Positions 8,218 to 36,068 of a DNA stretch of 41,629 bases are shown here, piece after piece. How positions within the stretch are numbered: the first letter of the stretch is position 1; each line of letters opens with the position of its first letter. The stretch comes from Bacteroidota bacterium (GTDB lineage Bacteria > Bacteroidota > Ignavibacteria > UBA10030), in assembly GCA_050008835.1 (NCBI GenBank), contig JBEKLV010000002.1:1-41629 (forward strand), given 5' to 3'. The notes under the pieces were generated by a model. That model was given only the letters and a program-made list of their open reading frames with translations. It ran no database searches and was not told where the DNA came from. A program made the position numbers and the translations under genes.

Positions 8218-8270
8218 TCTGACACGGTGTAAATTTGTGTCTTGCATCATATAATTGCTTTTGATACATT

Positions 8271-8304
8271 GGACGGCGGGTGGGAAGTATACACCCGTCG
8301 TTTT
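8271..8304 (+). terminator. Hairpin plus T-run between the FecR-domain gene and the barrel gene (possible partial terminator or attenuator)
   Basis: ggacggcgggtg (8271-8282) pairs with cacccgtcgttt (8292-8303), including G-U pairs. The loop is 9 nt and the stem runs into a tttt tract. Confidence 0.4.
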
Positions 8305-8361
8305 ATGTTATCCTGTAGGCACCATCGACAATTGCTAAATGTTCCTAACGAGGGGATTCCT

Positions 8362-10920: not shown

Positions 10921-10943
10921 TAAATTACGCATTGTTTGTTACT

Positions 10944-10981
10944 TCCCGCTTCTTTCCATCGTAAATGAGAAGCGGGATTAT
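10944..10981 (+). terminator. Stem-loop after the barrel gene
   Basis: Perfect 10-bp stem: tcccgcttct (10944-10953) with agaagcggga (10968-10977). The loop is 14 nt and the trailing T tract is weak. Confidence 0.45.
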
Positions 10982-11013
10982 TCCTCTCGCTCACCTCAAA
11001 AGGAATCAGAATT

Positions 11014-19862: not shown

Positions 19863-21161
19863 ATGACGATGAATTGGCTCGATCAATACAAGTCGAAAGT
19901 TGTGACTGTTGAGGAAGCAGTCAAGGTTGTTAAATCGAATGACCGGATTTTTCTCAGCGGGAACGCTGCAACACCACTTTTGTTAACGAACGCTCTAGCA
20001 AATCGTGCCCTGGAACTTTCTAATGTGGAAGTCAATCACATTTTGTTGTTTGGGGGTGACCCGCTTTCCAAGCCCGGCATGGCTCAACATTTCCGACACA
20101 ACTCGATGTTTGTTGGACCCGGCGATCGGCAATCTATCGCTGATGGAATTTCTGATTATGTACCGATTCATCTTTCGCAGATCCCGTCATTATTTTGTGA
20201 CGAATACATACCTCTCGATGTTGCGTTAATTCATGTTTCACCGCCTGATGCACACGGTTTTATGAGCTTTGGTGTTGAATGCGCTGCATCGAAAGCGGCA
20301 GCTGAAAATGCAAAGATAGTTATTGCACAAGTGAATGAACGCATGCCGCGCACGCTGGGTGATGTTTTTATTCATGTATCTCGAGTTCATAAAATTGTTG
20401 AATGTTCAATACCGATTTTGGAACTTCAGCCAACAACGGCTTCAGATATTGAAGCAAAGATTGCAGACTTCATAACTCCAATTATTGAAGACGGTGCAAC
20501 GCTCCAATTAGGAATTGGCGGCATACCAGATGCAGTACTGGCACGCATCGAAGGCAAACAGCATTTAGGCATTCACACGGAAATGATTTCCGACGGCGTA
20601 GTGGAAGCAATTGAAAAAGGTATTATCACTAGTCAGAAGAAAACGCTTCATCCCGGCAAAGTAGTAGCAACATTTGTGATGGGTACTCAAAAGTTATACG
20701 ATTATGTTCACAATAATCCACTCTTCGAACTGCACCCTTGTGACTATACTAACAATCCATTTATAATCGCGCAGAACGAAAAAATGGTTGCAATAAATTC
20801 CTGCATCGAGGTGGATATTACTGGGCAAATCTGTGCTGATTCCATCGGTACAAAAATTTACAGCGGTTTTGGCGGTCAAGTGGATTTCGTCCGCGGAGCG
20901 GCGCATTCCAAAGACGGCAAACCGATTATTGCGCTACCTTCTACCACTAAGAAAGGAACAGTTTCCCGAATTGTCCCTCAACTCAAACAAGGAGCCGGTG
21001 TAGTTACATCACGGGCAGATGTACATTATGTCGTAACAGAATACGGGGTTGCCTCACTCCATGGAAAGAATCTTCACAAGCGAGCGGAAGCTCTCATTGC
21101 AATAGCTCACCCATCATTTCGTCAGATGCTTGAAGAATATGTGCAAAATCCTAAGCATTAG
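19863..21161 (+). CDS. Acetyl-CoA hydrolase/transferase family protein (4-hydroxybutyrate or succinyl-CoA:acetate CoA-transferase type)
   Basis: The 432-aa product has N-terminal ...AVKVVKSNDRIFLSGNAATP, plus GIGGIPDAV, EMISDG and GFGGQVDF motifs typical of the family. Confidence 0.8.
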   Translation: MTMNWLDQYKSKVVTVEEAVKVVKSNDRIFLSGNAATPLLLTNALANRALELSNVEVNHILLFGGDPLSKPGMAQHFRHNSMFVGPGDRQSIADGISDYVPIHLSQIPSLFCDEYIPLDVALIHVSPPDAHGFMSFGVECAASKAAAENAKIVIAQVNERMPRTLGDVFIHVSRVHKIVECSIPILELQPTTASDIEAKIADFITPIIEDGATLQLGIGGIPDAVLARIEGKQHLGIHTEMISDGVVEAIEKGIITSQKKTLHPGKVVATFVMGTQKLYDYVHNNPLFELHPCDYTNNPFIIAQNEKMVAINSCIEVDITGQICADSIGTKIYSGFGGQVDFVRGAAHSKDGKPIIALPSTTKKGTVSRIVPQLKQGAGVVTSRADVHYVVTEYGVASLHGKNLHKRAEALIAIAHPSFRQMLEEYVQNPKH

Positions 21162-21371
21162 ATATCTATTTGTTTGGCTCAAAGGCACAATCATCGAAAC
21201 TGAAATAATAGACAAACATTTATCGGAATTGGAAGCATTAACGTATAAGAAGCAAGAAGAAAGTAACGTGATGATCATCGTAGATTCTGAAGAGAATTCA
21301 AAATGAAATATCACCAATAAGCAATTATAAAAATCTTCTTATCATCGTGCATTGAATAGAGAGCGAAATAT

Positions 21372-22871
21372 ATGAAGCGCATTTTCCCGCCAGCATTTTA
21401 TAATTTGCGGACACTGATCGGAGCGGCCATTGCATCGGTGAGCTTCGGACTTGTGCTCTTCTTGACTGTCCTTGATCTGTTTGAAGGAGAGCAGAAACCC
21501 TACATAGGCATTCTTACATATATTATTCTTCCGATATTCATGCTCTTTGGACTTATGCTTGTGTTCTATGGTATTTGGCGTGAGCACAGACGTGAGAAAC
21601 AAGGACTGCCACAAGATCTCAAATTACCACGTATTGATTTGAATGATCCAAAGCAACGGAATGCATTCTTTTGGTTTTCACTTGGTGCATTGCTGCTCTT
21701 ACTCTTCTCAGCCTTCGGCAGTTTCAAAGCTTACGAGTATACCGATTCCGATGAATTCTGTGGAACTATGTGTCATAAAGTTATGGAGCCGGAATATACG
21801 GCTTATAACAGTTCACCACATGCGCATGTCGGTTGTGCAAAATGCCACATTGGTCCCGGCGCTGGATGGTTTGTACGCTCTAAGCTTTCAGGTGCATATC
21901 AGGTGTATTCCACTATCTTCAATAAATATTCACGCCCTATTGCTACGCCGATCGAGAATCTTCGCCCAGCGCAAGAAACATGCGAGCAATGTCATTGGCC
22001 GAAGCATTTCTTTAGCGAGATGCGTGTATCAAAATTGTATTTTCTTTCTGATGAGGCAAATACGCGATGGAATTTGGTTCTACTTATCAAAGTTGGGGGG
22101 GGAAACGAAGAAACCGGACTTTCGGGAGGTATTCATTGGAACATGAATATTGCAAATGCAATTACGTACACACCGGCAGATAGACAGCGGCAGATCATTC
22201 CATGGATTAAAGTAAAAAGTAAAAAGGATGGAACTGAGCATATCTATTGCAACCTTGAAAATCCTATCACCGAAGATTCGTTAGCGTTGTTAGAAAAACG
22301 TACGATGGATTGCATCGATTGTCATAATCGTCCCTCGCACATCTATCATCCCCCGGTACCGACGGTAGATCATATTATATCGGCTGGATTGATAGATTCA
22401 AAGTTACCATACGCGAAAAGCATTGCTGTCAAAGCACTTGATCAAACATATTCTTCATCAGATATCGCACGGGATAGTATCCGGCTTGTAATTGAAGAAT
22501 ATTACAAAACTAGTTATCCGCAAATTGCTTCAGAAAAAAACGCGGCAATTAGTCAGATAGTTTCAACAGTCCAAAAATTTTATGCACGAAATTATTTTCC
22601 GACAATGGCTGTCACATGGCGACATTTTCCAAATAATATTGGCCACCTTTTTTATAAAGGTTGTTTCCGATGCCATGATAATAAACATATTAGAGAGGAT
22701 GGAAAAGTCCTAACGAACGAATGTTCTGTTTGTCATACAATTCTTGCTCAGAGTTTTGGAAAAGAAAAAAACAGTGTTTCGCTGGATGGTGTCCCATACC
22801 AACATCCTGTGGACATTGGAGATTCATGGAAGGAAATGAATTGTAGTGATTGCCATACTGCAGAAGAGTAG
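21372..22871 (+). CDS. Membrane-anchored heptaheme c-type cytochrome with a NapC/NirT-like quinol dehydrogenase module
   Basis: Three N-terminal hydrophobic segments and seven CXXCH motifs (CGTMCH, CAKCH, CEQCH, CIDCH, CFRCH, CSVCH, CSDCH). EFCGTMCHKVMEPEYTAYNSSPHAHVGCAKCHIGPG resembles the NapC/NirT/NrfH N-terminus. Confidence 0.8.
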   Translation: MKRIFPPAFYNLRTLIGAAIASVSFGLVLFLTVLDLFEGEQKPYIGILTYIILPIFMLFGLMLVFYGIWREHRREKQGLPQDLKLPRIDLNDPKQRNAFFWFSLGALLLLLFSAFGSFKAYEYTDSDEFCGTMCHKVMEPEYTAYNSSPHAHVGCAKCHIGPGAGWFVRSKLSGAYQVYSTIFNKYSRPIATPIENLRPAQETCEQCHWPKHFFSEMRVSKLYFLSDEANTRWNLVLLIKVGGGNEETGLSGGIHWNMNIANAITYTPADRQRQIIPWIKVKSKKDGTEHIYCNLENPITEDSLALLEKRTMDCIDCHNRPSHIYHPPVPTVDHIISAGLIDSKLPYAKSIAVKALDQTYSSSDIARDSIRLVIEEYYKTSYPQIASEKNAAISQIVSTVQKFYARNYFPTMAVTWRHFPNNIGHLFYKGCFRCHDNKHIREDGKVLTNECSVCHTILAQSFGKEKNSVSLDGVPYQHPVDIGDSWKEMNCSDCHTAEE

Positions 22872-23114
22872 TTAAAGTTGGTTTTATGAACGATAATAAT
22901 TAGGTAAGAATTACAACCCAAGAAAAATTATATGTATATTAGATTGTGGCAGCTTAATGGATTTTAGATTGATAATTTCAACAAGTGTCATTGCTGTATT
23001 GATAATATCATGATAATTGTATATGTCGGTTCTTAAACGTAGATAAAAACAACACTTTTCATGATAAGCTAAAAGCGTTATCAATTATTAACTCAATAAT
23101 AAGGAGCGTTTCAT

Positions 23115-23633
23115 ATGCAGAAGACGATTTCATTTCTTCTTGCGGCTTTGGTCCTGTTTTCATTTTCCACGCTTGCTCAAAATAAGTATGTTGGAGCTAA
23201 AATGTGTGGTATGTGCCATAAAGGTGAAAAGAAGGGTGCACAATTTGAAATTTGGCAAAAGAGTAACCACGCCGAAGCTTATAAAACTTTAACCGAAGCT
23301 AAAGCAGCCGAAATTACTAAGGCAAGGGGATTGAAAAAAGCGGCAAATGAATCACCTGAATGCCTCGAGTGCCATGCCATTACAGCTGATGCCAAGCTCA
23401 CTGTCGATGGAGTGCAATGTGAAACTTGCCACGGTGCGGGTTCAGCATACAAGGCTTTTTCCATTATGAAAGATAAAGCAAAAGCAATTACTGCGGGCTT
23501 AACGGAATTCAAAGATAAGGGAGCGATTGAAAAAAAATGCAAGACATGCCACAACGAGAAAAGTCCATCCTATAAGCCCTTTAAGTTTGATGAAATGTGG
23601 GTAAAGATTAAGCATCCAATTCCAAAAGGATAA
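23115..23633 (+). CDS. Periplasmic tetraheme c-type cytochrome (c554-like family)
   Basis: RBS AAGGAG and signal peptide ending FSTLAQ. Four CXXCH motifs (CGMCH, CLECH, CETCH, CKTCH) occur within 172 aa. Confidence 0.8.
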   Translation: MQKTISFLLAALVLFSFSTLAQNKYVGAKMCGMCHKGEKKGAQFEIWQKSNHAEAYKTLTEAKAAEITKARGLKKAANESPECLECHAITADAKLTVDGVQCETCHGAGSAYKAFSIMKDKAKAITAGLTEFKDKGAIEKKCKTCHNEKSPSYKPFKFDEMWVKIKHPIPKG

Positions 23634-23743
23634 TAATTATAATAAATTTTCTAGTTGTTTGAGCAGGCGTCTCGGCAATAATAAAATGAGACGCTCGATT
23701 ATTTGCGTTTAGCATTTTCGCAATCATATATAACAGACAACCA

Positions 23744-25042
23744 ATGAAATATTTAATGCAGCGCAGCATTTTGATAATTTTGGCGATGCTTATTTTTCTT
23801 TTCTGCAAAACATCGGCACAATTTCTCCAATTGCGACTTATTTCTTCCGCCTCTGCGTGGCAGCAACGAGATACTATAGGTCAATCATCCAACCACCTGT
23901 TCGGATACCAGACAGTACAACTCTCGCTAGCAGGTGAGCATCTCTCGTTTCATACATATCTGCAGGGATCTAACGATTTTGCTGGTCCGTTGAAGAACGA
24001 AAGTACAGTTCGATTCTATAATTTTTATTTGAATTATTTAAATCTATTTGAAACAATCGATTTCAGTCTCGGTCGTCAAGCGATCTTCGCAGGTGTCGGC
24101 AACGGCACAATCGATGGCGGTGTTGCTTCAATTCGATTGTTAGATTCAAGGTTAAAAGTGCTCGGCTATTATGGAGCTTTGCCATCTACTGGACAAAAGT
24201 TTGAAATGATTGGTGATCAAAAAGATAATAATATGTTTGGTGCTCAAATTATTAGTACACCGTCAGATTTTGCCCGTGTATCATTGAGCTATATGCAGAA
24301 AAACATCAAACCGGAAACATACTGGGCGCTCAGAAAAGACTCCCTTTTCAATCCCGTTATAACAGAGATCTCTCCAAGTGCGATGGCAGAACAATACGTA
24401 AGCGGCGATGTAAGCATTGACTACAACATAATCTCTGCATATGCGAGAAGTGATTTCGATTTAAATCAAGAAAATATTTCGCGCATTCAATTCTTCACAC
24501 GGGTGAAGCTAACAGAACCGCTTTCACTGACAGGTGAATATATCCATCGCGAACCGCGTCTCTTATATAATTCTATTTTCTGGGTGTTTGCTTACAATAC
24601 AATCAGTGAATACGAACTGGGCGCAGAATATGCTATCTGCAAAGACTGGCAAGTATTTGGGAAGTTCGGTTCCATTTCATACGGTGATGATAATTCCGAT
24701 CAAGTGACACTTGGTTACAATATAAAGTACGCCTCGGCAAGTTTTAGCTGGAACACCGGTTATGGCGGAGAATTAGCAGCGTTTTCTGTAAATGCTGGTT
24801 ATCCCCTTTTCGATTATAAACTTACACCAACTATTACAGTTGGATATGCACATTACAAGTTGAATAGCAATGCGCCAATATCAGATGCTTTAAGCAGTGC
24901 GATTGGAGCTGTGTACCGACCAATTCCGGTACTTTCGTTAGATGCACAGGTTCAGTGGATTCAAAATAAAATTTATAGTGACGATGTACGCCTCTTTTTA
25001 CGAGGCAGTTACTATTTAGGCGAACATTTGACATTTTTTTAA
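23744..25042 (+). CDS. Outer-membrane beta-barrel (porin-like) protein embedded in the cytochrome cluster
   Basis: Signal peptide ending CKTSAQ. Amphipathic alternating strands rich in Y/G/S/N run throughout. The terminal ...GEHLTFF has an aromatic beta-signal. There are no CXXCH motifs. Confidence 0.6.
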   Translation: MKYLMQRSILIILAMLIFLFCKTSAQFLQLRLISSASAWQQRDTIGQSSNHLFGYQTVQLSLAGEHLSFHTYLQGSNDFAGPLKNESTVRFYNFYLNYLNLFETIDFSLGRQAIFAGVGNGTIDGGVASIRLLDSRLKVLGYYGALPSTGQKFEMIGDQKDNNMFGAQIISTPSDFARVSLSYMQKNIKPETYWALRKDSLFNPVITEISPSAMAEQYVSGDVSIDYNIISAYARSDFDLNQENISRIQFFTRVKLTEPLSLTGEYIHREPRLLYNSIFWVFAYNTISEYELGAEYAICKDWQVFGKFGSISYGDDNSDQVTLGYNIKYASASFSWNTGYGGELAAFSVNAGYPLFDYKLTPTITVGYAHYKLNSNAPISDALSSAIGAVYRPIPVLSLDAQVQWIQNKIYSDDVRLFLRGSYYLGEHLTFF

Positions 25043-25049
25043 GATTACC

Positions 25050-26288
25050 ATGCAAACAAATCGAAAGAACACATCAATTATTCTGAAGCATGGATTTCTT
25101 TTCATAAGTTTGATGCTGACATTGCTTCTTACCTTCACCGGTGCAGTGGTACTACGTGAACAAATCGTCAGTGATAAGCAGCCGAAGCGTGTAAAATTTT
25201 CTCATCAATTTCATGTCACCGAAGCCGGCATCGCCTGTATAGATTGCCATACAGATGTAGCAAAGAGCACCAAAGCATCCGACAATCTTCTTGCGAAGAT
25301 GGAAGCTTGCAAGAGCTGCCACGAAGAACCGTTGAAAAGCAATTGCACCTATTGCCATCTGAATTCGGATTCTACGAAATATACAGCGACACCAAATCCT
25401 ATTCGCGAACTGATGTTTTCACATCAACAGCATGTGGAAGATCAAAAAGTAACATGCGAAACATGTCACACTATTCTCGATAAAGCTGATGCTGCAACCG
25501 GAGAACTTGTACCTGCAATGGCAACATGCAACTCTTGCCACAACGATACGAAAGCAACAACTGCATGTGAAAAGTGCCATACCGATTTTGCATCGCTGCG
25601 TCCTATAGAGCACAATCGTACAAATTTTATCCATGAACATAAACGATTAGCACGACTCGGTGATGCCAAGTGCGGCGTTTGCCACTCGCAAGAAACTTGC
25701 ATCGATTGTCACAACGGATCGGAATTAATAAAAGTAGATGTGCTGGGACGTGATCTTACATCACAACGATCGCCACGTCTCACAGCAATCGATCGAGGAC
25801 AAGAAATGTGTTTGACAAAAATACACGATTTAAATTTCCGCTTTACACATGGTATTGCCGCAAAAGGCAAATCGATGGAATGTCAAACGTGCCACAATTC
25901 AGAAAAATATTGCTCAACATGTCATGAAGCTGGAGGCAATATAAATCAAGGTGCGTTCAAGCCGGCATCGCATGCTGTAGCCGGATTTACAACACTAGGG
26001 GTTGGAAGCAGTGGCGGCGAACATGCACGCTTGGCAAGACGTGATATTGAGTCGTGTGCAGCCTGCCACGGTGCAGAGGGTGCCGATCCAGTGTGTATCA
26101 CTTGCCATGTCGATCCCGATGGAATAAAAGGTAATGATCCGAAAACGCATGACCCCGGCTTTATGTCCAATACGCACGGGCCCTGGCATTTTGATCCCGG
26201 CGCCAATTGCTATATGTGCCACACAGATGTCAACGCACATCCGGGCGGAGTTAAAGGACAAAAATTCTGCGGTTATTGCCACCGATAA
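25050..26288 (+). CDS. 14-heme c-type cytochrome
   Basis: Fourteen CXXCH motifs were counted in 412 aa, with a single N-terminal hydrophobic segment. The start codon is 7 nt after the porin stop codon. Confidence 0.85.
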   Translation: MQTNRKNTSIILKHGFLFISLMLTLLLTFTGAVVLREQIVSDKQPKRVKFSHQFHVTEAGIACIDCHTDVAKSTKASDNLLAKMEACKSCHEEPLKSNCTYCHLNSDSTKYTATPNPIRELMFSHQQHVEDQKVTCETCHTILDKADAATGELVPAMATCNSCHNDTKATTACEKCHTDFASLRPIEHNRTNFIHEHKRLARLGDAKCGVCHSQETCIDCHNGSELIKVDVLGRDLTSQRSPRLTAIDRGQEMCLTKIHDLNFRFTHGIAAKGKSMECQTCHNSEKYCSTCHEAGGNINQGAFKPASHAVAGFTTLGVGSSGGEHARLARRDIESCAACHGAEGADPVCITCHVDPDGIKGNDPKTHDPGFMSNTHGPWHFDPGANCYMCHTDVNAHPGGVKGQKFCGYCHR

Positions 26289-26303
26289 TGGGATGGCTTG
26301 ATT

Positions 26304-27164
26304 ATGAAGAAGCAGCGTATCATTCTAATTTTGATGCTATTGATAATATCAGCGCTTCTAATTTCATGCAGTGATTTGAAAAATAGTCTACCGACAGCAA
26401 TAAGTGCTGAAGTACAGATTCATGGACAAGGATGGATCGATACCGGTTCTGTAAATTTCCATGGCAAGTATATTCAAAACATTAATTACAATCTTACTAT
26501 TTGCAAGCAGTGTCATGGAAGCAATTATGAGGGTGGCACATCAAACAGTTCATGCCGGCCATGTCATTCAGGACCCGGTGGACCAGAAAATTGTGCTACG
26601 TGCCATGGCATACCTCCTGCACCGGATCGTTATGGAAATACTTCCTTTACTGCCCCAGGGGTTGGGGCACATAATATACATTATACAGGAACAGGAACAA
26701 TTTCCGCATTAGCGATGCATTGTGATGATTGCCATCATTTGCCCAACGGGGTTTCTGACACGACACATATCACCGCAACGGGAATTGCACAAGTACAGAT
26801 AAGTAACTTAGGCGCGCTGCAAACAAATGGAGCTGTTCCATCAACTTCGTTTAGCCAATTAACTTTAAAATGCACCAATACATTTTGTCATGGTAATTGG
26901 ACATTACCGAAATCTGGATTGGCAAGCGATTCGGTCTTTTCAGGTACGGTGATGACAGGCGTTTTAGCAAATGCCCCAGTCTGGAACGGCGGATCTAGTC
27001 AAGCTGTTTGCGGTTCATGTCATGGTTTACCACCAGCAGGCCATTATTCCTATTCACAAAGTTGTACCGCGTGTCATGAAGATGTTACAACGGCTTCTGG
27101 AAAACTAAAGCATATGAATGGAAAAATCGACCTTGCTGGTGGAGTGGTGCGAAACTTCCGATAA
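26304..27164 (+). CDS. Lipoprotein multiheme cytochrome (6 CXXCH plus 1 CX4CH)
   Basis: Lipobox LISC. CXXCH motifs: CKQCH, CRPCH, CATCH, CDDCH, CGSCH, CTACH. CTNTFCH lies at nt 26871-26891. CHG-x-PP spacing recalls the Geobacter CxxxxCH...CXXCH domain. Confidence 0.8.
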   Translation: MKKQRIILILMLLIISALLISCSDLKNSLPTAISAEVQIHGQGWIDTGSVNFHGKYIQNINYNLTICKQCHGSNYEGGTSNSSCRPCHSGPGGPENCATCHGIPPAPDRYGNTSFTAPGVGAHNIHYTGTGTISALAMHCDDCHHLPNGVSDTTHITATGIAQVQISNLGALQTNGAVPSTSFSQLTLKCTNTFCHGNWTLPKSGLASDSVFSGTVMTGVLANAPVWNGGSSQAVCGSCHGLPPAGHYSYSQSCTACHEDVTTASGKLKHMNGKIDLAGGVVRNFR

Positions 27165-27261
27165 AAGTATTTTTTGAAGATAATATTATCTTAAAGAGTC
27201 TATTGAAATAGAATAGTATATATAAACAATTAAATTTTAACCTTTAATAAAAAGGTGCTAT

Positions 27262-28536
27262 ATGATGAATAAAACATTCGGGGGTTTTGTTATCTGTTTG
27301 GCGGGCCTCTTAATGGTTGTAGGCATATCTGGTTGTAAAGAAGGCCCCACGGGTCCAGCTGGTAAAGATGCTTCAGTCAGCGCTCTCGAAGGCTATGCCC
27401 CTGGCATTCAATGCGCTACATGTCATAGTGCAGACTCTGATACAACATATCGAGTTGCTGCAAGGGAAGTTCAATATTCAACATCAGAGCATGCTGTAGG
27501 TGGCGATTTTGCCCGTAATACGTATGATTGCGCTGGTTGCCATACGAATGAAGGTTTCTACGACCGTTATAATAGAGGTTTCGCAAATGAAACATTTAAC
27601 ATCAATGCTCCTTCTGTAGAAATTTGTACGCAGGGTTACCCTAATGCAACACCTCCCGGCTGTTTTACCTGTCATGCAGCTCACCAACGTGCCAATTTCA
27701 CGGTACGAGATTCCGGTGCAGTAAATATCTTTACGCTTGTTGCTGGACAGGCAACAAAGATTTGGAACAGCAGTGCAGCATCTAATTTGTGTGTAAAGTG
27801 CCATGAACCGCGAATGACTTCGACATTTATGTGGGCAACTACCTCTTCTAGTGGTACAACACCAGCGTCTTGGCAGCCGGATCCATCAAAAATAAATACG
27901 ACAGATACAGCAAAGATCTATACATCGCGTTGGAATAATCACGTCTCAGGTGAGCCAGCGCAAACTTTACTTGGTACTGGTGGATTTGAATTCACGGGCT
28001 ATTCGAATTATCAAAGCTCATATCATACTACTTTAATTAACAACAAAGCGCTGGGTTGTGAAGATTGCCACATGGCAATTGTGAATGGCGGTAATCAAAA
28101 CGGCGGACATACATTCTGGGTGCGCTATCTTGCATCAGGCTCAACAAGCCCATCTTACAATGTAAACGGCTGTAATGTATCTGGGTGTCATACGGGCCTT
28201 ATAGCTTCAGCGTCCGATGCACACTGGAGCGAGCGTGCAACAATTATTGGAGAGACTGCACAACTGGCTAAAATGTTGATGGATACATCAGTTACAAATA
28301 AATGGTCGCAGAAAAGTAAAATTCCTTGGGTAACAGTATCTGCTGGCACGATTGTAGGCGATTCCACTTACGGAGTCAATGCAACGGGCAGTAAGCCGCT
28401 GATTATTGCCCCAGCTTATAAAGCCGGTGCAATTTGGAATTTGCAGCAGATTCAATATGAAAATAGCCATGGTATTCACAATTATAAATATGTTAAGGCA
28501 CTGTTGGATAATTCGATTGCAGAATTGAGCAAATAA
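27262..28536 (+). CDS. Lipoprotein multiheme cytochrome (5 CXXCH plus 1 CX4CH)
   Basis: Lipobox ISGC followed by GPTGPAGKD. CXXCH motifs: CATCH, CAGCH, CFTCH, CVKCH, CEDCH. CNVSGCH lies at nt 28171-28191. Confidence 0.8.
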   Translation: MMNKTFGGFVICLAGLLMVVGISGCKEGPTGPAGKDASVSALEGYAPGIQCATCHSADSDTTYRVAAREVQYSTSEHAVGGDFARNTYDCAGCHTNEGFYDRYNRGFANETFNINAPSVEICTQGYPNATPPGCFTCHAAHQRANFTVRDSGAVNIFTLVAGQATKIWNSSAASNLCVKCHEPRMTSTFMWATTSSSGTTPASWQPDPSKINTTDTAKIYTSRWNNHVSGEPAQTLLGTGGFEFTGYSNYQSSYHTTLINNKALGCEDCHMAIVNGGNQNGGHTFWVRYLASGSTSPSYNVNGCNVSGCHTGLIASASDAHWSERATIIGETAQLAKMLMDTSVTNKWSQKSKIPWVTVSAGTIVGDSTYGVNATGSKPLIIAPAYKAGAIWNLQQIQYENSHGIHNYKYVKALLDNSIAELSK

Positions 28537-28574
28537 GGTCTGAAGAGAAGCTTCAGATGTCAAGTATTTTATGT

Positions 28575-28608
28575 GTGCGGGAGTGTAGGTTTCCCGCACT
28601 TTTGTTTT
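28575..28608 (+). terminator. Intrinsic terminator after the cytochrome genes
   Basis: gtgcggga (28575-28582) pairs with tcccgcac (28592-28599), followed by ttttgtttt. Confidence 0.7.
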
Positions 28609-28709
28609 CAATCAAATCCCTGCTTCGGTGAAGCCTTGATCTTCAATTCTGTGTTGTATTTCGAGGAGTGATTGTTTATAATCGTATATATTCGATAAAA
28701 GGAATATAT

Positions 28710-30953
28710 ATGATCGGTACTGTTGTCGTCTGGATCGCTTGTCTTGCTGCTTTCACTTCGGCCATACTGTATGCAGTATCTATAAAAAAACCAGAGAATC
28801 TTCTCAAAGCACGCAGCAGTTTTATCCTGACAGTTGTCAGTGTCATTTTAGGTTCTGCGCTTCTCATGATTTACATTTTCCAGCACCGGTTTGAATATAA
28901 CTATGTCACAAATTATAGTTCTCGCGATTTACCAACAGCGCTACTGATCACAACTTTCTGGGCAGGACAGGAAGGAAGTTTTTTACTCTGGGCACTTTTT
29001 GCCGTAATCATCGGTTTTATTCTGCAGCGCTATACACAGCGCAAGGGAATTGAACGTGAAACAATGGCCGTTTATTCATTTTTAATTACATTTCTTTTAT
29101 TGCTCATTTCTATAAAATCGCCTTTTGAATATGTCTGGGATGCAGCCGCAGACAGCGTGCCGAAAGGATTTATCCCGCCGGATGGTAAAGGTCTTAATCC
29201 GCTGCTTCAAAATATTTGGATGATTATACATCCGCCGGTACTTTTTTGGGGATTTGCCTCACTTGCTGTTCCATTTGTAATTGCCCTTGCAGCACTCTGG
29301 CAGAAAAAATATGAAAAGTGGATACATAATGCTTTGCCTTGGGTACTTTTCAGTGCGGTATCACTTGGTGCCGGCCTAATACTCGGCGGTTATTGGGCAT
29401 ACGGTGTACTCGGTTGGGGTGGTTGGTGGGGCTGGGATCCGGTGGAAAATTCATCGCTTATTCCCTGGATGGTTGCTGTTATGTTAATTCATACAATGCT
29501 CATTCAGATGTTAACCGGTAAACTTGCGCGCACAAATTTCATTCTTGCTGTACTCACATATCTCCTGGTTATTTATAGTACGTTCTTAACGCGCAGTGGA
29601 ATTCTTGCAAATGCTTCAGTGCACTCATTTGTGGATCCCGGCACATTTGCATATTCATTGCTTATCGTATGGTTAGGAGCGATTGCCTCTTGCGGATTTG
29701 GAATGACTATTTTGCGATGGAAGGAACTGAAAATCGCAACTCCTCACAGTGCATGGTTCAACCGCGAATCTATGCTCACACTTGCCATAATTGTGATAGG
29801 AGTCTGCGCGGCAGTTATTCTTTTTGGAACTAGCAAACCTCTTTTTTCCACTTCCACAGTTGAGCCATCGTTCTACGATCGTACCAGCCTACCGCTTGCT
29901 GTGTTAATGACGTTACTGCTCGGACTCAGTCTACGTACACAATGGAATAAAGAAGAACTGCCGTTATTTATGAAGAAACTTGTTATTCCTGGCATCTTGT
30001 CCATTGTCGTTCTCGGTATTTTCATTATGATGGGTTTGCACGATATACTTAATGCATTACTCGTGCTAACATCGCTCTTCGCATTCTTTGTTAGTGTCCG
30101 TCAAGGTTACCGGATTGCAAAAGAACAGCCACGCTTTATAGGCGGCGCGCTATCGCATACCGGATTGGCGATACTTTTTCTTGGCATCATCGCATCCGGC
30201 AGATATGGACAAAAACAATCTATCTCGCTTCCATTGAACCAGCCGAAGTCTGCCTTTGGTTATCAGCTGAATTTTACCAGTGCAAAACTTGCGCAGGATG
30301 GGAAGACAAAGTATGTAGTCAGCGTTGAATACAATGGCAAGTTCGCACTTCTCGAACCAATAATGTTCGAAAGCAATTACAACAACAGTCTTATGCGAAT
30401 TCCGGATTACTTAAGTTCGTGGTCTGGCGACTTCTACCTTGAGCCGGTTTCCTTTGAGCAGGGAGAAACAAATCAAGAGAACCTGATTGTTCTGGTGAAA
30501 GATGAACCACAAATTTACGGTCCTATCACCATCACCTTCCAAAGATTTGAGATGGGAACGCATGGTAAGAGCGGCATGATGGGTGCAGAGAATTCTGTTA
30601 CCATTGGCGCAGTGCTTCAAATCAAAACCGAAAAGGATGTTCAGGCAATTGTACCGACAACAACATATAATACACAGGGACATCTTGAGATGAAAACAGC
30701 ATATCTCAAGAATGGACATCTTGGATTTCAACTTGTGGCAATGAACGTGGCATCTGGTACAAAGAAATCACAAGTGCAAATCAATGTCATCGGCGTTGAA
30801 AAGATGATGCACGCAGGAATGCAAAAACCTGAAACTCTTATTGCTGAGATCAGTGTGAAGCCGTTTATGAACTTCGTATGGATTGCTGCCGCGATGATTA
30901 TTAGCGGTTTGACAATAGCTATGCTGCAGCGATTAAAGCAGAATAATATTTAA
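28710..30953 (+). CDS. ccmF: CcmF/NrfE-type cytochrome c heme lyase
   Basis: The Trp-rich WWD motif WAYGVLGWGGWWGWDPVENSSLIPWM matches the CcmF type. The protein is polytopic with many TM helices. The ATG at 28710 has an AAGGA spacer; the GTG at 28668 abuts its putative RBS. Confidence 0.85.
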   Translation: MIGTVVVWIACLAAFTSAILYAVSIKKPENLLKARSSFILTVVSVILGSALLMIYIFQHRFEYNYVTNYSSRDLPTALLITTFWAGQEGSFLLWALFAVIIGFILQRYTQRKGIERETMAVYSFLITFLLLLISIKSPFEYVWDAAADSVPKGFIPPDGKGLNPLLQNIWMIIHPPVLFWGFASLAVPFVIALAALWQKKYEKWIHNALPWVLFSAVSLGAGLILGGYWAYGVLGWGGWWGWDPVENSSLIPWMVAVMLIHTMLIQMLTGKLARTNFILAVLTYLLVIYSTFLTRSGILANASVHSFVDPGTFAYSLLIVWLGAIASCGFGMTILRWKELKIATPHSAWFNRESMLTLAIIVIGVCAAVILFGTSKPLFSTSTVEPSFYDRTSLPLAVLMTLLLGLSLRTQWNKEELPLFMKKLVIPGILSIVVLGIFIMMGLHDILNALLVLTSLFAFFVSVRQGYRIAKEQPRFIGGALSHTGLAILFLGIIASGRYGQKQSISLPLNQPKSAFGYQLNFTSAKLAQDGKTKYVVSVEYNGKFALLEPIMFESNYNNSLMRIPDYLSSWSGDFYLEPVSFEQGETNQENLIVLVKDEPQIYGPITITFQRFEMGTHGKSGMMGAENSVTIGAVLQIKTEKDVQAIVPTTTYNTQGHLEMKTAYLKNGHLGFQLVAMNVASGTKKSQVQINVIGVEKMMHAGMQKPETLIAEISVKPFMNFVWIAAAMIISGLTIAMLQRLKQNNI

Positions 30954-31005
30954 AGATTTTTCAATTATGATTAGATAATTTTGTAGGCTGTCTTTTGAAA
31001 TACAA

Positions 31006-31026
31006 TGGGCGGCTTAAGGCCGCTCA
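31006..31026. terminator. Short GC hairpin between convergent genes
   Basis: tgggcggc (31006-31013) pairs with gccgctca (31019-31026), including one G-U pair. The loop is 5 nt. Confidence 0.4.
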
Positions 31027-31056
31027 CTTTATTATACTCAATTGTTTTCTTCTCTT

Positions 31057-31761
31057 TTACTTTATTTCTTCTTTCCAATACACATAGTTATTGTTTCGAT
31101 TCATCAACGCAATATCTTTTGGAATTATTTTCAATAGCCCATGAATAGCAGATCCTTCTGACGTCAGGTTTACAACAAAATGAACTTTGAAAAACACATT
31201 GGATTCGTTTCCCTTTGCTGATCGTGCTTCGTCTCTTCCAACTTTCCATTCAAAATCAGGATTGAATTTCATAAAAATACTCGATGTCCGATAACCGCCC
31301 CGAATACTATCCGCTAAGTCAATAAACGGATTAGATGGAACAAAACAATCCACGGTTGGTATGCTGTATGGCGCTTCGACAGTCGTCGCACATTTTAAAG
31401 AATATATCTCAGCATCTGCATTGTATGAGACGAGTGTTGCTTTGAACCACAAGCCAAAAACTCTGTGATCTAACTTTGTTTCCTTGAGGTGGGCGTTTAA
31501 TTTGCTTTGAAGGGAATCACGAGAACGCGTCACTCGCGCTTGAAATTCTTGTGTTGTCTCAAACTCGCCTCGTGTTTCTGTTTCATTTTTCAGCTGGGCA
31601 ACAGCATCACGTAAGTAAGCCCACTCATCTTTTAGTAAGATTGTAAATGATTCAGATGGAGTATCTTCATCTTGATATACCGCTTGCTGCACTTGCGCCA
31701 CTAGCATAGCGGTCGTAATAAAACTACACAATGCAACGGAAAGCGCAATGTTCTTTTTCAT
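31057..31761 (-). CDS. Hypothetical secreted protein
   Basis: An internal ATG at 31761 gives MKKNIALSVALCSFITTAMLVAQ, a signal peptide. I recognise no family. Confidence 0.45.
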   Translation of the reverse strand: MKKNIALSVALCSFITTAMLVAQVQQAVYQDEDTPSESFTILLKDEWAYLRDAVAQLKNETETRGEFETTQEFQARVTRSRDSLQSKLNAHLKETKLDHRVFGLWFKATLVSYNADAEIYSLKCATTVEAPYSIPTVDCFVPSNPFIDLADSIRGGYRTSSIFMKFNPDFEWKVGRDEARSAKGNESNVFFKVHFVVNLTSEGSAIHGLLKIIPKDIALMNRNNNYVYWKEEIK

Positions 31762-32359
31762 ATTTAATCCTTTCGAGGAAAACATCAAACAAAGTCTATC
31801 GTGTTGAGAGTATCTCAGAGGAAACATCCTCCGCGATCTCACACGTATTTTTCACATAGTCACTCACTGCAATGCTGCCGCGATAATTTCCAGCCAGCAA
31901 CATGCCTTGGTCGAATTCTTCAAACTGATTAAGCGTAACCATCTTTTACTGGTAATATATTTTATATTGTGCAATGGATTATTGCCAGCGCGTTATATTC
32001 AAATATACGGGTTTTCCTGAAAATTGCATAATAGATTTGAGTCCGTCAAGCGTTATTTGAATAATTTGTGCATCATTCTTTTGCAAGCATTGTAATATTG
32101 ATGCCGCGTTTCTTCAGCCAGTAGATAATACCAAGTCCAATAATGCTTTCGCCGATATAACGATCATATCTATCTTTATTTGTCCTATATTAACTCAAGT
32201 ATAAGGTATAAAGGGAAAAAGAAAAATGAAAAAATAATTAGAGGATATTTTAGTTTTTAAAAAAAGTTGCTTTTTCCTCTGATTACTTCAATTACAATTA
32301 TTCCGTATTATTAAATTATTGGAACGATGTACTGGCGGTTTTTGTTTTAAAATACTGTA

Positions 32360-33292
32360 ATGCCTATAAAACGAAAATATACATTTGGTCCTGTTCCATC
32401 CCGGCGATTAGGATTATCGCTTGGTGTGGATGTTATCCCAAATAAACTATGCTCGCTTGATTGTGTGTACTGCGAAGTCGGCGTGACCGATAAACGCGGC
32501 ATTGCGAGGAAAGAATATTTACCTGCAGATGAAATTCTTGCTGAAGTGAAAGAGGTGATTGCAGAATATCCCAATCTCGACCATATAACAATTTCAGGTT
32601 CCGGCGAACCGACATTGAACTCAAAAATAGGTGACATAATCCGCGGCATCAAGCAAATGACGAAAGTCCCGGTTGCAGTGCTAACTAATGGAACATTGTT
32701 AAACCTGCCCGAAGTGAGGCGCGATTTGATGGATGCAAATATTGTCTCACCATCTCTGGATGCAGTCTCGGCAGACGTATTTGAAAAAGTTGACAGGCCA
32801 AATCCGAAACTCCGCATAGACACTATTCTTGACGGCATCAAAGCGTTCCGTCAAGAATTCCAAGGCAGGATGTGGATCGAAATTCTTTTTGTCAAAGGGA
32901 TGAACGATCACGATGAGGAAGTGTTCAAAATGAAACAGGTGCTTGATGAAATTCAGCCGGATAAAATTCATCTCAATACTGTCATCCGTCCGCCGGCATA
33001 TACAATTGCGCAGCCGGTTGGAGAAAACCGCTTGAAGGAGATTCAAAAGATATTGGGGGAACGCAGTGAAATAGTCGGCATCTTCAAAGAAACACATAAG
33101 ACACAAGAGCATGCTATCGATGAGCAAGCAATTCTCGCACTACTTAAGCGCCGTGCAATGACTGTCGATCAGATGACGGAATCGTTAGCTATGCTGAAAG
33201 AAGAGATTATTATATCGTTGAAACAATTGGATCAAGAAAAATTTATTAGGTCGTATATATATAACGGGGAAGAATACTACAAAGCGGTGTAG
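32360..33292 (+). CDS. Radical SAM enzyme (single 4Fe-4S/SAM cluster)
   Basis: CSLDCVYC (CX3CX2C) lies at nt 32450-32473, preceded by the FGPVPSRRLGLSLGV leader, with ISGSGEPTL downstream. There are no further Cys residues, so there is no SPASM or auxiliary cluster. Confidence 0.8.
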   Translation: MPIKRKYTFGPVPSRRLGLSLGVDVIPNKLCSLDCVYCEVGVTDKRGIARKEYLPADEILAEVKEVIAEYPNLDHITISGSGEPTLNSKIGDIIRGIKQMTKVPVAVLTNGTLLNLPEVRRDLMDANIVSPSLDAVSADVFEKVDRPNPKLRIDTILDGIKAFRQEFQGRMWIEILFVKGMNDHDEEVFKMKQVLDEIQPDKIHLNTVIRPPAYTIAQPVGENRLKEIQKILGERSEIVGIFKETHKTQEHAIDEQAILALLKRRAMTVDQMTESLAMLKEEIIISLKQLDQEKFIRSYIYNGEEYYKAV

Positions 33293-33385: not shown

Positions 33386-34099
33386 TTATAAACTTAGGAA
33401 TTGGATTGCAATTCCGCAAAAGAATATTGAGATTCCTGCGAGTGCGTGATTGTAGCGCTCAAAATGTTTCATAGGAAGCAGGCGCAAGCCGGCGACTGAA
33501 CCGAGAACAACACCAACCATTGTGCCAATAGTAATCAAACCGAAGACAAGACTTACGATTACAACATGAAGTATGTGCCCCTGAGCGGCGGGGTACATAA
33601 GAATGGGGATCAATGGTTCACACGGACCAAGAACAAATATAATGAACAATACCCAGGGCGTCATAGTTGGGTTGTTAGATTGCTCATGCATGTGCGCGTG
33701 TTCCTCTGCATGTACATGCGTATGGCTATGTGTGCTACCATCACTGTGAGGATGCCAATGCGTATGCGGTTTAATCAGATATGCTGCACGAAGCCCCCAG
33801 ATTCCATAGATCAATCCGAAAGCGATCAATATCCAACCGGCAATATTTCCACGGATGGCCTCGAGCGATTGTAGATGCGCAACTGCAATTCCAAAACCGA
33901 CTCCAACCAATCCGAGGATAACAGAGCTGCCCACGTGCCCAATACCACAGAAGATGGTGACGAGTGTAGTTTTAAGCGTGGACCATTTGCCCGCTTTGGA
34001 CATAACGATAAATGGCACATAATGATCCGGGCCAAGAAGCGTATGAACGAGCGCAACAGATACGGCGGTTATAATTAGTATGCTAAGTTCTTGATTCAT
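33386..34099 (-). CDS. His-rich-loop polytopic metal transporter (RcnA/NicO-like Ni/Co type)
   Basis: About 6 TM helices. HTLLGPDH lies in TM1 and the central loop is HTHWHPHSDGSTHSHTHVHAEEHAHMHE. The ATG at 34099 is preferred over the TTG at 34180. Confidence 0.5.
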   Translation of the reverse strand: MNQELSILIITAVSVALVHTLLGPDHYVPFIVMSKAGKWSTLKTTLVTIFCGIGHVGSSVILGLVGVGFGIAVAHLQSLEAIRGNIAGWILIAFGLIYGIWGLRAAYLIKPHTHWHPHSDGSTHSHTHVHAEEHAHMHEQSNNPTMTPWVLFIIFVLGPCEPLIPILMYPAAQGHILHVVIVSLVFGLITIGTMVGVVLGSVAGLRLLPMKHFERYNHALAGISIFFCGIAIQFLSL

Positions 34100-34168
34100 T
34101 TTATTATTGAATAAAGATAACAAAAAAACTGAAAAGAAGAATCTGTTTTTTGAATCAATATATAGAAG

Positions 34169-34180
34169 TTGTGCGCACAA
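34169..34180. promoter_or_regulatory. Perfect 12-bp palindrome TTGTGCGCACAA upstream of the metal transporter gene (candidate operator)
   Basis: The palindrome was read directly from the sequence. It lies 70-80 bp upstream of the 34099 start, in the divergent intergenic region. Confidence 0.25.
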
Positions 34181-34283
34181 CTAAAACATGCGCTATGCAG
34201 CATGATGTCCATGCAAATTTATTTAAGCATGTGTGCTCTTGCAAACGGAAAAGAGCTGCAGTATCTTATAAGCGATAGACATC

Positions 34284-35376
34284 ATGATTATAATATTTAA
34301 TGATGAAATGATTTCAAACAAAACTAAAATAAAAGATAGTTTATCAAAGTTGCTTAAGCAAAAAAACCTTGCACAAATCCGCGCAGTAGTTCAGGATGTT
34401 AAAAAGGACGTTGAAAAGTTGTCTATGGATAAAGATGGAGTTCGCAATATATCGTTTAATGAAGAACCCACTAAGGTTAATTCGAAATATTTATTCGGTG
34501 AGCTTGACCAAATTCTTGATACTCGGACCATTGAAAGAACAAAATATTATATCCAAAGATTAGTCCGCGCACTTTCTGAAACAAAAACCGGTAAGATTAA
34601 CGATTTGAATTTACATAGATGGAAAGAATATGATGATATTCTTACGGATAGTCTTTGGATTTTAGAAAAACGCCATACCTCTGGTGTCCATAGCGGAGGT
34701 TATTGGGGCAACTTTATTCCGCAAATTCCAAATCAGCTGTTAAGGCGCTATACAAAAAGGGGCGAATGGGTACTAGATACATTTCTTGGAAGTGGAACCA
34801 CCTTAATAGAAAGCAAACGGTTAGGACGGAATGGTGTTGGAGTAGAGCTTCTACGAAAAGTTGCAGGCTCGGCCGCAAAAACAATCGAACAAGAAGATGA
34901 TCTATACTCGACTCGAACAGAAATTATTATAGGTGACAGTTCAAACTTGAATTTTAAATCCGAACTAAATAAACGGAAAATTAAAAGCGTGCAGTTTTTA
35001 ATTATGCACCCACCTTACTGGGATATTATTAAATTTAGCAAAGATGAAAGAGATTTATCGAATGCTAAATCAATAGATGAATTTTTAATTCTTTTTGGGA
35101 AAATAGTTGATGCTACATATCCAGTTTTAGACAAAGGTCGATATTTCGCATTAGTCATTGGTGATAAATATTCCTGCGGTAATTGGATACCTCTTGGTTT
35201 CTATGCGATGCAAGAAGTTTTTAAAACGTGGATATTCCTTGAAATCTATTATTATAAAAAATTTTGATGAGACAAAAGGAAAAAGAAATCAGAAAGAACT
35301 TTGGCGATATCGTGCTTTAGTAGGCGGTTTTTACATTTTTAAACACGAGTACATATTTTTATTTAGGAAGATATGA
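34284..35376 (+). pseudogene. Frameshifted orphan SAM-dependent DNA methyltransferase (N4/N6 type)
   Basis: Motif I region WVLDTFLGSGTTLIESKRLGRNGVGVEL and motif IV HPPYW lie in frame 0. The conserved C-terminal ...FKHEYIFLFRK is in the +1 frame (ORF 35158-35376). The two frames join if one T is removed from the T5 run at 35218-35222. Confidence 0.65.
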
Positions 35377-35504
35377 TTATCGGTGTATCTAAATAGATCC
35401 TTTTCGTTACAGGCGCAAAATATTTATTAGTAAGAATCTGTTTATTTGCATTAAAATAATGTTATAATTCGATTGATAACTTATTACTACTACAGGAGGG
35501 ATCA

Positions 35505-36068
35505 ATGGTCGCTATTATTATTCTTGCTCTCATAATTATTTTTGTTGTCGCAGCAATTGGTGGTTACAATTCTCTAATTCAAATACGAAATCAAGTGCGC
35601 AATGCCTGGAAACAAATCGATGTACAACTTAAACGCCGGCATGACCTGATTCCCAATCTAGTTAATGCAGTTAAAGGACAGATGGAATTTGAGAAAGGAA
35701 CGCTTGAGGGTGTTATCCAAGCTCGTGCAGCGGCTGTTGGTGCAAGTAATATTGCAGACAGCATGGCGAAAGAAGATGTGTTGTCATCGGCGCTCTCCAA
35801 ACTTTTTGCTGTTGTTGAAAATTATCCAACTTTGAAAGCTAACGAAAGCGTTCAACCGTTGATGGAAGAATTAACAACTACAGAAAACCAAATCACATTT
35901 GCTCGTCAGTTCTATAATGATATCACAACTACATATAACACAAAGTTAGAAATGTTTCCCACGAATCTCGTCGCAGCGTCGATGGGCTTCAAATTATTCC
36001 CGCTATTTCAGGTAAAAGATGCCGGTGAGCGGGAAGCACCGACAGTGGACCTTTCGCTAAAGAAATAA
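35505..36068 (+). CDS. lemA: LemA family protein
   Basis: RBS AGGAGGG and an N-terminal TM helix. YNSLIQIRNQVRNAWKQIDVQLKRRHDLIPNLV and ENYPTLKANE are typical LemA motifs. Confidence 0.85.
   Translation: MVAIIILALIIIFVVAAIGGYNSLIQIRNQVRNAWKQIDVQLKRRHDLIPNLVNAVKGQMEFEKGTLEGVIQARAAAVGASNIADSMAKEDVLSSALSKLFAVVENYPTLKANESVQPLMEELTTTENQITFARQFYNDITTTYNTKLEMFPTNLVAASMGFKLFPLFQVKDAGEREAPTVDLSLKK

Follow-up and report, generated by a model that had tools for sequence, protein, structure and literature searches.

Seven consecutive genes at positions 21372–30953 of a 41,629-nucleotide stretch of DNA from an Ignavibacteria bacterium (contig JBEKLV010000002.1, assembly GCA_050008835.1) encode one multiheme cytochrome after another. 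Do they constitute a complete route for electrons across the cell envelope, and if so, in which direction do the electrons travel? We refer to the whole stretch as the window and to the seven genes, all of which lie on the + strand, as g1–g7. An earlier interpretation, made from the DNA without database searches and termed here the sequence-only reading, had proposed that these genes specify a porin-cytochrome conduit for extracellular electron transfer. Family searches, structure prediction, and comparison with related genomes lead us to consider it probable that the cluster encodes an extracellular electron transfer pathway of the porin-cytochrome (Pcc) type, which most likely carries electrons outward. 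The cluster represents a further instance of a porin-cytochrome type that has been known from Ignavibacteria genomes since 2014 and is experimentally uncharacterized.

Gene organization and heme content

A check of the open reading frames (ORFs) of the window agrees with the sequence-only reading on the number, strand, and coordinates of the genes (Table 1). Successive genes are separated by 243, 110, 7, 9, 97, and 131 nucleotides, and the 14-heme cytochrome gene (g4) thus starts 7 nucleotides past the stop codon of the barrel gene (g3), as had been noted. The seven genes contain 35 CXXCH motifs, one CX3CH motif, and two CX4CH motifs. The previous tally of 36 canonical CXXCH and two CX4CH motifs requires correction, because the CX3CH site of g1 had been counted as canonical. 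The density of heme motifs in the cluster is far above chance: 35 in-frame CXXCH motifs fall within 7.2 kb, compared with seven for the rest of the window (34.5 kb), its six frames combined. Terminator-like hairpins are found in the interval between g6 and g7, as expected from the earlier description of a CcmF-type lyase gene behind a terminator, and at the end of the cluster. A Rfam scan of positions 20500–32500 yielded no match to an RNA family, and promoter-like sites in the region occurred no more often than in shuffled sequence. The DNA repeats in the cluster region consist only of recurring codon strings for CxxCH.

Table 1. Genes and hairpins of the cluster, in window coordinates.
Feature	Description	Position	Strand	Basis
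g1	ImcH-like inner-membrane heptaheme protein, putative quinol oxidase, 499 amino acids	21372–22871	+	Motifs, transmembrane segments, NapC/NirT match
g2	Periplasmic tetraheme c554-like cytochrome, 172 amino acids, signal peptide ending ..TLAQ	23115–23633	+	4 CXXCH, Pfam match
g3	Heme-free outer-membrane β-barrel, 432 amino acids, signal peptide, C-terminal ..LTFF	23744–25042	+	No heme motif, AlphaFold2 barrel
g4	14-heme cytochrome, 412 amino acids, presumed barrel-inserted periplasmic wire	25050–26288	+	14 CXXCH
g5	Lipoprotein cytochrome, 288 amino acids	26298–27164	+	6 CXXCH + 1 CX4CH, lipobox LISC
g6	Lipoprotein cytochrome, 424 amino acids	27262–28536	+	5 CXXCH + 1 CX4CH, lipobox ISGC
Hairpin, g6/g7 interval	Terminator-like	28575–28599	+	9-bp G+C-rich stem, 6 G-C pairs, T-rich tail
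g7	CcmF/NrfE-type heme lyase paralog, ~15 transmembrane segments	28668–30953	+	WWD domain + CcmF_C
Hairpin, end of cluster after g7	Terminator-like	31006–31026	+	9-bp stem, 6 G-C pairs

The barrel and the 14-heme cytochrome

The center of the putative conduit is the pair formed by g3 and g4. g3 lacks heme motifs, and AlphaFold2, supplied with 38 homologs, models the protein as a β-barrel with 24 strands assigned by DSSP, in agreement with the heme-free outer-membrane barrel of the sequence-only reading. The folds closest to this model in a Foldseek search were the 24-strand ushers FimD and PapC (TMq ~0.5), followed by the 18-strand AlgE and OprD; MtrB was absent from the 50 best matches. g3 passed none of the curated porin models, including OMP_b-brl (23.6 bits; cutoff 28.7) and Porin_4 (19.4 bits; cutoff 27), and found no match in NCBIfam. 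Its profile retrieved only noise from the sequences of the PDB (calreticulin, E ~0.3). We collected 262 homologs of g3, all of which are unnamed proteins from metagenome bins designated Ignavibacteriota or "Bacteroidota". Two outcomes that had been named in advance as fatal to the conduit find no support: g3 passes none of the models of known nutrient porin families, and a model with about 24 predicted strands gives no indication of a barrel too narrow for a cytochrome.

g4 contains 14 CXXCH motifs, as claimed previously, and 12 additional histidines; all of these are invariant across 41 aligned homologs, and nearly all orthologs have 14 hemes. The protein is made of c7-type triheme repeats, and residues 49–212 align with the whole of ActA from alternative complex III (PDB 6f0k, E 4.8e-8; 8k9e, E 2e-10). 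In every related locus in which the pair could be assessed (60 of 60), g4 directly follows g3, with a modal gap of 7 nucleotides. This invariable adjacency rules out the notion that the barrel is an unrelated porin present by chance. Membership in the MtrCAB family is likewise ruled out, both by the absence of MtrB from the fold matches of g3 and by the score of g4 against the DmsE/MtrA decaheme model TIGR03508, which amounts to 19.4 bits compared with a cutoff of 192.2. The reading of the cluster as a trans-envelope conduit is well supported by the large barrel predicted, its place outside the porin families, and its constant coupling to g4.

Inner-membrane and periplasmic components

g1 is the ImcH-like component of the cluster. 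Three hydrophobic helices (residues 15–33, 47–65, and 98–116) precede the heme motifs, the first of which is a CX3CH (CGTMCH, residue 130) placed directly after the third helix; six CXXCH motifs follow. A NapC/NirT/NrfH-like region extends over residues ~99–212. g1 matches Pfam Cytochrom_NNT (PF03264) with 39.3 bits (cutoff 24.1; E 7.4e-10), the NrfH model TIGR03153 (E 4.6e-13), and D. vulgaris NrfH in the PDB (2j7a_C; E 1.7e-5), and the heptaheme, NapC/NirT-like membrane protein of the sequence-only reading is thereby borne out. ImcH has been defined as a protein of 495–519 amino acids with three transmembrane segments, a CX3CH motif by the transmembrane domain, six CX2CH motifs, and homology to NapC/NirT (PMC4251993, PMC6295460). 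g1 exhibits every one of these hallmarks; the likeness is one of architecture rather than of alignment to Geobacter ImcH (GSU3259), to which published ImcH homologs outside Geobacter show 31.5–49% similarity. All 40 g1 orthologs seen retain the motif pattern (6,1,0). A search of 1.84 billion representative sequences placed 720 representatives in the g1 family at E ≤ 1e-30 and 3487 at E ≤ 0.001.

g2 encodes the secreted tetraheme c554-like protein that had been proposed as a shuttle. In addition to its four CXXCH motifs, the protein matches Pfam Cytochrome_C554 (PF13435) with 57.4 bits (cutoff 20.8; E 2.9e-15). The match to the structure of N. europaea cytochrome c554 (1bvb) is weak (E 0.005), and g2 falls below the equivalog model of the Nitrosomonas protein (38 compared with a cutoff of 400).

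Lipoprotein cytochromes and the heme lyase

The lipoboxes of g5 and g6, together with seven and six heme motifs, respectively, agree with the earlier description of two lipoprotein multiheme cytochromes. N-termini of orthologs indicate that translation of g5 probably begins at the ATG at 26304. g5 scores 40.1 bits against TIGR01904 (cutoff 27), a CxxxxCH/CxxCH domain originally described from Geobacter, and also matches Pfam PF09698; every g5 ortholog keeps at least one CX4CH motif. g6 passes the Pfam model of MtrC/MtrF domain II/IV (34.1 bits; cutoff 30) and has no NCBIfam match. Neither lipoprotein has relatives among PDB sequences.

Each lipoprotein carries a distinctive segment after its lipid-anchored cysteine. 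In g5, the segment CS[DE]L[KR]xDLP (26367–26393; residues 24–32) is nearly invariant among orthologs. Speculatively, it may be a counterpart of the acidic lipoprotein export signal known from Bacteroidota and direct export to the cell surface. In g6, the anchor is followed by GPTGPAGKD, a run of collagen-like G-X-Y triplets (27334–27366; residues 25–35). Such triplets (e.g., CKGPEGPAGPPGE) occur in the g6 orthologs of ~28 loci, where their number ranges from 3 to 10 with a mode of 5; the window has 3, and the locus designated L003 has up to 10. Runs of at least four G-X-Y triplets are rare among the other ORFs of the loci. The triplets, which are a new detail of this protein family, may form a stalk or a trimerization element of a surface cytochrome.

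g7 matches Pfam Cytochrom_C_asm (PF01578; 100.1 bits, E 1.8e-28) and CcmF_C (PF16327; 64.5 bits, E 1.3e-17) and carries the WWD motif WGWDPVEN (GWGGWWGWDPVEN). Its scores lie under the subfamily cutoffs of NCBIfam (TIGR03145, 254.6 bits with a cutoff of 927.3; TIGR00353, 230.2 bits with a cutoff of 569). Judged by these scores, g7 is a divergent CcmF/NrfE paralog. The protein contains no heme motifs itself, and ortholog N-termini place its true start, probably, at the ATG at 28710 (747 amino acids).

Conservation of the cluster across genomes

A search through one genome per species identified 67 related loci (L001–L067), nearly all of them in metagenome-assembled genomes (MAGs) of Ignavibacteriota from peat, groundwater, sediment, lakes, and soils. 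The closest relatives have record titles with the isolate labels "fen_..." and "SPRUCE"; the closest of all, L001 (~87% nucleotide identity), is labeled "fen_1300". Among loci with enough sequence for a given gene to be scored, g1 is present in 40 of 50 and a g5-type protein in 53 of 58; g2 precedes the barrel in 55 of 63, and g7 closes the cluster at its 3' end in 42 of 51. Conservation of gene order, which had been put forward as a test of the conduit, is thus decisive, with the g3–g4 pair preserved throughout and the other genes found in most loci.

Most relatives carry four additional genes in an equal chromosomal context. A 13-heme cytochrome fused to cytochrome b561, an architecture characteristic of CbcL, is encoded upstream of g1, and the interval between g1 and g2 holds three genes, which encode a Rieske protein, cytochrome b, and an 11-heme cytochrome. 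These genes (2274–9103 in L004, for example) are absent from the corresponding intervals of the window (21162–21371 and 22872–23114) and from L001. The cluster is flanked upstream by genes for 2-oxoacid:ferredoxin oxidoreductase, alanine dehydrogenase, and acetyl-CoA hydrolase, and downstream by a gene for a hypothetical protein and one for a radical SAM protein; these surroundings are those of ordinary metabolism, and the three upstream genes are housekeeping genes of a heterotroph. Because the acetyl-CoA hydrolase flank and the downstream hypothetical gene are common to the window and to relatives that carry the additional genes, comparison of the loci indicates that all four additional genes were lost in the lineage of the window and L001. 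The ImcH-like g1 is the sole quinol module left in these two clusters.

The lipoprotein genes have a different history. Relative to the window, nucleotide identity to L001 is 86–94% for g1–g4 and 71% for g6, and g5 has no detectable match there. The pattern is reversed in L004 and L050, where g1–g4 and g7 are 66–76% identical to the window and g5–g6 are 84–93% identical. Because the pattern of g5–g6 opposes that of the rest of the cluster, it points to horizontal exchange of the pair, as a cassette, from one lineage to another. Elsewhere, single lipoproteins with 7–18 hemes and two or three CX4CH motifs take the place of g5–g6. The surface module is the fastest-changing part of the cluster, as would be expected of exposed components.

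At the edge of the distribution are L066, a Zixibacteria MAG, and L067, an unclassified bin. Their barrels are 26–27% identical to g3, their 14-heme proteins are 40% identical to g4, and both loci have Rieske, cytochrome b, and 9-heme genes. Judged by these two loci, the pair of barrel and 14-heme cytochrome extends beyond Ignavibacteriota.

Comparison with known systems

Despite the statement in the sequence-only reading that no resemblance to MtrABC or OmaB/OmcB is seen beyond heme motifs, four likenesses emerged: to a published cluster of the same phylum, to the architecture of ImcH, to the domain of TIGR01904, and to MtrC/MtrF. The first of these is the pcc cluster of Ignavibacterium album JCM 16511, IALB_1840–IALB_1837 (Shi, Fredrickson, Zachara 2014, PMC4245776). 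It encodes a periplasmic cytochrome (IALB_1840), a porin (IALB_1839), a 400-amino-acid cytochrome with 14 hemes that is predicted to be periplasmic and is the largest Pcc periplasmic cytochrome (IALB_1838), and an outer cytochrome with an atypical motif (IALB_1837) (PMC4245776). Genes g2–g5 correspond to these four genes one for one. g2 and g5 pair with IALB_1840 and IALB_1837 by position, and both clusters are known from genome analysis alone. Published pcc clusters were defined by architecture; their porins share as little as 8% and as much as 100% identity, and those of I. album, like its other Pcc proteins, are phylogenetic outliers (PMC4245776). The locus L040, from a MAG labeled I. album, encodes a barrel 50% identical to g3; no entry of the I. 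album type strain appeared among the best 120 matches of its 14-heme protein. The I. album cluster was depicted with four genes, whereas the conserved unit described here adds the ImcH-like gene, a second lipoprotein cytochrome, and the CcmF-like gene. The suggestion that the conduit is "independently assembled, uncharacterised" is thus overstated: independent assembly of a novel system is not supported, since the four-gene core was published in 2014, and the cluster is uncharacterized in the experimental sense only. Other OmbB-like Pcc clusters have been described in Ignavibacteria MAGs from iron-rich hot springs, bioanodes, and a humic bog (PMC6137239, PMC7399161, PMC6344600).

The order of g3, g4, and g5 (barrel, periplasmic multiheme cytochrome, lipoprotein cytochrome) is that of OmbB-OmaB-OmcB in Geobacter sulfurreducens (Liu 2014; Shi 2014), as the sequence-only reading had recognized. 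Two features of Pcc clusters are evident in the window, namely the adjoining barrel and cytochrome genes and the presence of genes for lipoprotein multiheme cytochromes (g5 and g6, predicted by lipobox). The Geobacter barrel is likewise compact and well below the size of MtrB, surface cytochromes of Geobacter also contain CX4CH-type motifs such as those in the domain that g5 passes, and the organism likewise has an ImcH-type quinol oxidase. The two systems differ in the periplasmic partner, which binds 8 hemes in Geobacter and 14 in g4, and in the setting of the quinol oxidase gene: imcH is monocistronic in Geobacter, whereas the ImcH-like g1 belongs to the cluster. With 24 strands in the model, g3 is near but above the 18–22 strands predicted for published Pcc porins (PMC4245776). 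MtrB-type porins, in contrast, are much larger than Pcc porins, with 28 predicted trans-membrane motifs (PMC4245776), whereas g3 is compact with its 432 amino acids. What the cluster shares with the MtrCAB and CymA system of Shewanella is a common logic, in which a NapC/NirT-related oxidase, a shuttle, a cytochrome within a barrel, and an outer lipoprotein cytochrome act in sequence, along with the MtrC/MtrF domain of g6. Finally, the clusters of relatives encode the multiheme cytochrome c-cytochrome b561 fusion typical of CbcL beside the ImcH-like gene, and the window has no CbcL-like gene.

What the window adds to this picture is modest: an extended conserved unit that reaches from imcH to the ccmF paralog, the gene losses, the apparent cassette exchange, and the collagen-like triplets. 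Existing knowledge of how such conduits work is left unchanged.

Direction of electron flow and the proposed pathway

ImcH is the quinol oxidase that Geobacter uses for high-potential acceptors, and homologs have been reported in Melioribacter roseus and other Ignavibacteriae. A multi-omics study of M. roseus dealt with respiration of oxygen and arsenate, not of Fe(III). Proteins of the ImcH type have so far been implicated solely in quinol oxidation, and only in Fe(III) reducers (PMC6295460). We infer outward flow because of this restriction and because putative surface cytochromes are present. The sequence-only reading had considered the direction unreadable from sequence; its caution stands to the extent that the direction continues to be deduced indirectly, but the ImcH-like architecture of g1 now favors the outward course.

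In the pathway that we favor, the ImcH-type g1 would oxidize menaquinol and hand the electrons to the soluble tetraheme g2. g2 would in turn reduce the 14-heme g4, which would be threaded in the ~24-strand barrel of g3 and would span the outer membrane. The lipid-anchored g5 and g6, presumed to reside on the cell surface, would receive the electrons there and deliver them to acceptors that are insoluble or large, among them Fe(III) minerals and humic substances. g7 probably attaches heme at the atypical CX3CH and CX4CH sites. The analysis demonstrates the set of genes with their heme motifs and families, the prediction of a barrel, and the conserved gene order; the placement of g4 within the barrel, the exposure of g5 and g6, the direction, the acceptor, and the specificity of g7 are inferred.

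If the flow ran in the opposite direction, Fe(II), reduced humics, a cathode, or a partner cell would supply electrons, which the conduit would pass on to the quinone pool or periplasmic reductases; such uptake has been proposed for MtoAB and PioAB. Multiheme conduits are reversible in principle, c554-type cytochromes are known in lithotrophs, and Ignavibacteriaceae MAGs from a humic bog also have Cyc2. Fe(II) oxidizers make use of a Rieske/cytochrome b module, and most relatives' clusters encode such a complex. The window, however, has lost this complex and retains only the ImcH-like protein; oxidizing clusters of the Mto and Pio types typically lack surface cytochromes, two of which are encoded here, and the genes that flank the cluster are those of a heterotroph. 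Together these features make reverse flow improbable in our estimation.

Several observations weigh against an outward, barrel-spanning pathway. Some concern the structural models and the placement of g4. The AlphaFold2 model of g3 is of moderate confidence (pLDDT 74), and that of g4, built from an alignment of 41 sequences, was judged unusable (pLDDT 48). The N-terminal hydrophobic stretch of g4 is long (residues ~14–35), and orthologs do not preserve its putative cleavage site, TGA|V; because of these two properties, the stretch could hold g4 in the inner membrane, as in ActA. g4 would then act as a periplasmic wire or electron store, and a lipoprotein cytochrome would fill the barrel. Such a topology would accord with the alignment of g4 to all of ActA and with a hydrophobic segment of ~21 residues that was modeled as a single long helix (residues 4–39). 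Against it stands the tight and constant coupling of g4 to g3, which mirrors that of MtrB to MtrA and of OmbB to OmaB, where the neighboring cytochrome is the inserted one. Moreover, the I. album counterpart of g4 was predicted to be periplasmic (PMC4245776), and 14 hemes more than suffice to cross the outer membrane. We regard the anchored arrangement as about as improbable as reverse flow and retain g4 as the likely occupant of the barrel.

A second group of observations concerns function. I. album showed no growth with oxides of Fe(III) or Mn(IV) (PMC4245776). In the literature through 2020, we found no genetic or biochemical test of a cluster of the Ignavibacteriota type. One might imagine a periplasmic multiheme network that serves a soluble substrate or redox buffering and whose barrel is simply a porin, either general or for that substrate; I. 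album possesses the cluster yet respired neither oxide, and other substrates have been suggested for it (PMC4245776). This arrangement strikes us as very improbable, more so than either reverse flow or an anchored g4. Neither the cluster nor its conserved neighbors encode a catalytic subunit with molybdopterin, siroheme, or Cu, the barrel scores below porin thresholds and never occurs apart from the 14-heme gene, and two lipid-anchored cytochromes would be hard to explain. The comparisons themselves constitute a third group: the match to the I. album cluster consists of architecture, heme count, size, and phylum, and the likeness to OmbB, OmaB, and OmcB is one of gene order and motif type. No Pfam or NCBIfam model exists for proteins of the OmbB/OmaB/OmcB type. 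With these points taken into account, the outward Pcc-type pathway remains the one that we consider probable.

It is tempting to speculate, as an idea that we rate unlikely, that the Ignavibacteriota conduit is a distinct porin-cytochrome class assembled convergently and not a diverged form of the Geobacter Pcc. Such a class would combine a ~24-strand barrel and a 14-heme, ActA/c7-like wire with a swapped surface cassette and a collagen-like, possibly trimeric stalk. It would include a CcmF paralog dedicated to CX3CH and CX4CH sites, as well as interchangeable CbcL-like, ImcH-like, and Rieske/cytochrome b modules that set the range of acceptor potentials. If this were true, the lineage of the window would have been pared down to an ImcH-only, high-potential route.

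Whatever its ancestry, the cluster joins a fixed core (the c554-like cytochrome, the barrel, and the 14-heme cytochrome) to a variable, exchangeable surface module. Variants with or without the CbcL-like and Rieske/cytochrome b genes could mark the redox window of a population. Judged by the record titles of the relatives, Ignavibacteriota are widespread in peat, groundwater, and sediment, where reduction of iron and humic substances competes with methanogenesis. The cluster is the best candidate for the machinery by which Ignavibacteriota would take part in such reduction.

Other observations in the window

Three regions outside the cluster merit mention. Upstream, on the + strand, positions 6523–13221 encode a FecR-domain protein, an 892-amino-acid protein without a Pfam match, and a CHASE2-adenylate/guanylate cyclase sensor; these genes have no evident tie to the cluster. 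Downstream, a gene on the − strand (33386–34180) encodes a DsbD_2-family ("cytochrome c biogenesis transmembrane") membrane protein with a histidine-rich loop (HTHWHPHSDGSTHSHTHVHAEEHAHMHE), which could be a transporter of thiol reductant or of metal. Finally, the G+C content falls to 35% at positions 34001–36000, compared with ~42% elsewhere in the window. The dip overlaps a DNA methylase gene (34284–35267), and the stretch may be a small acquired island.

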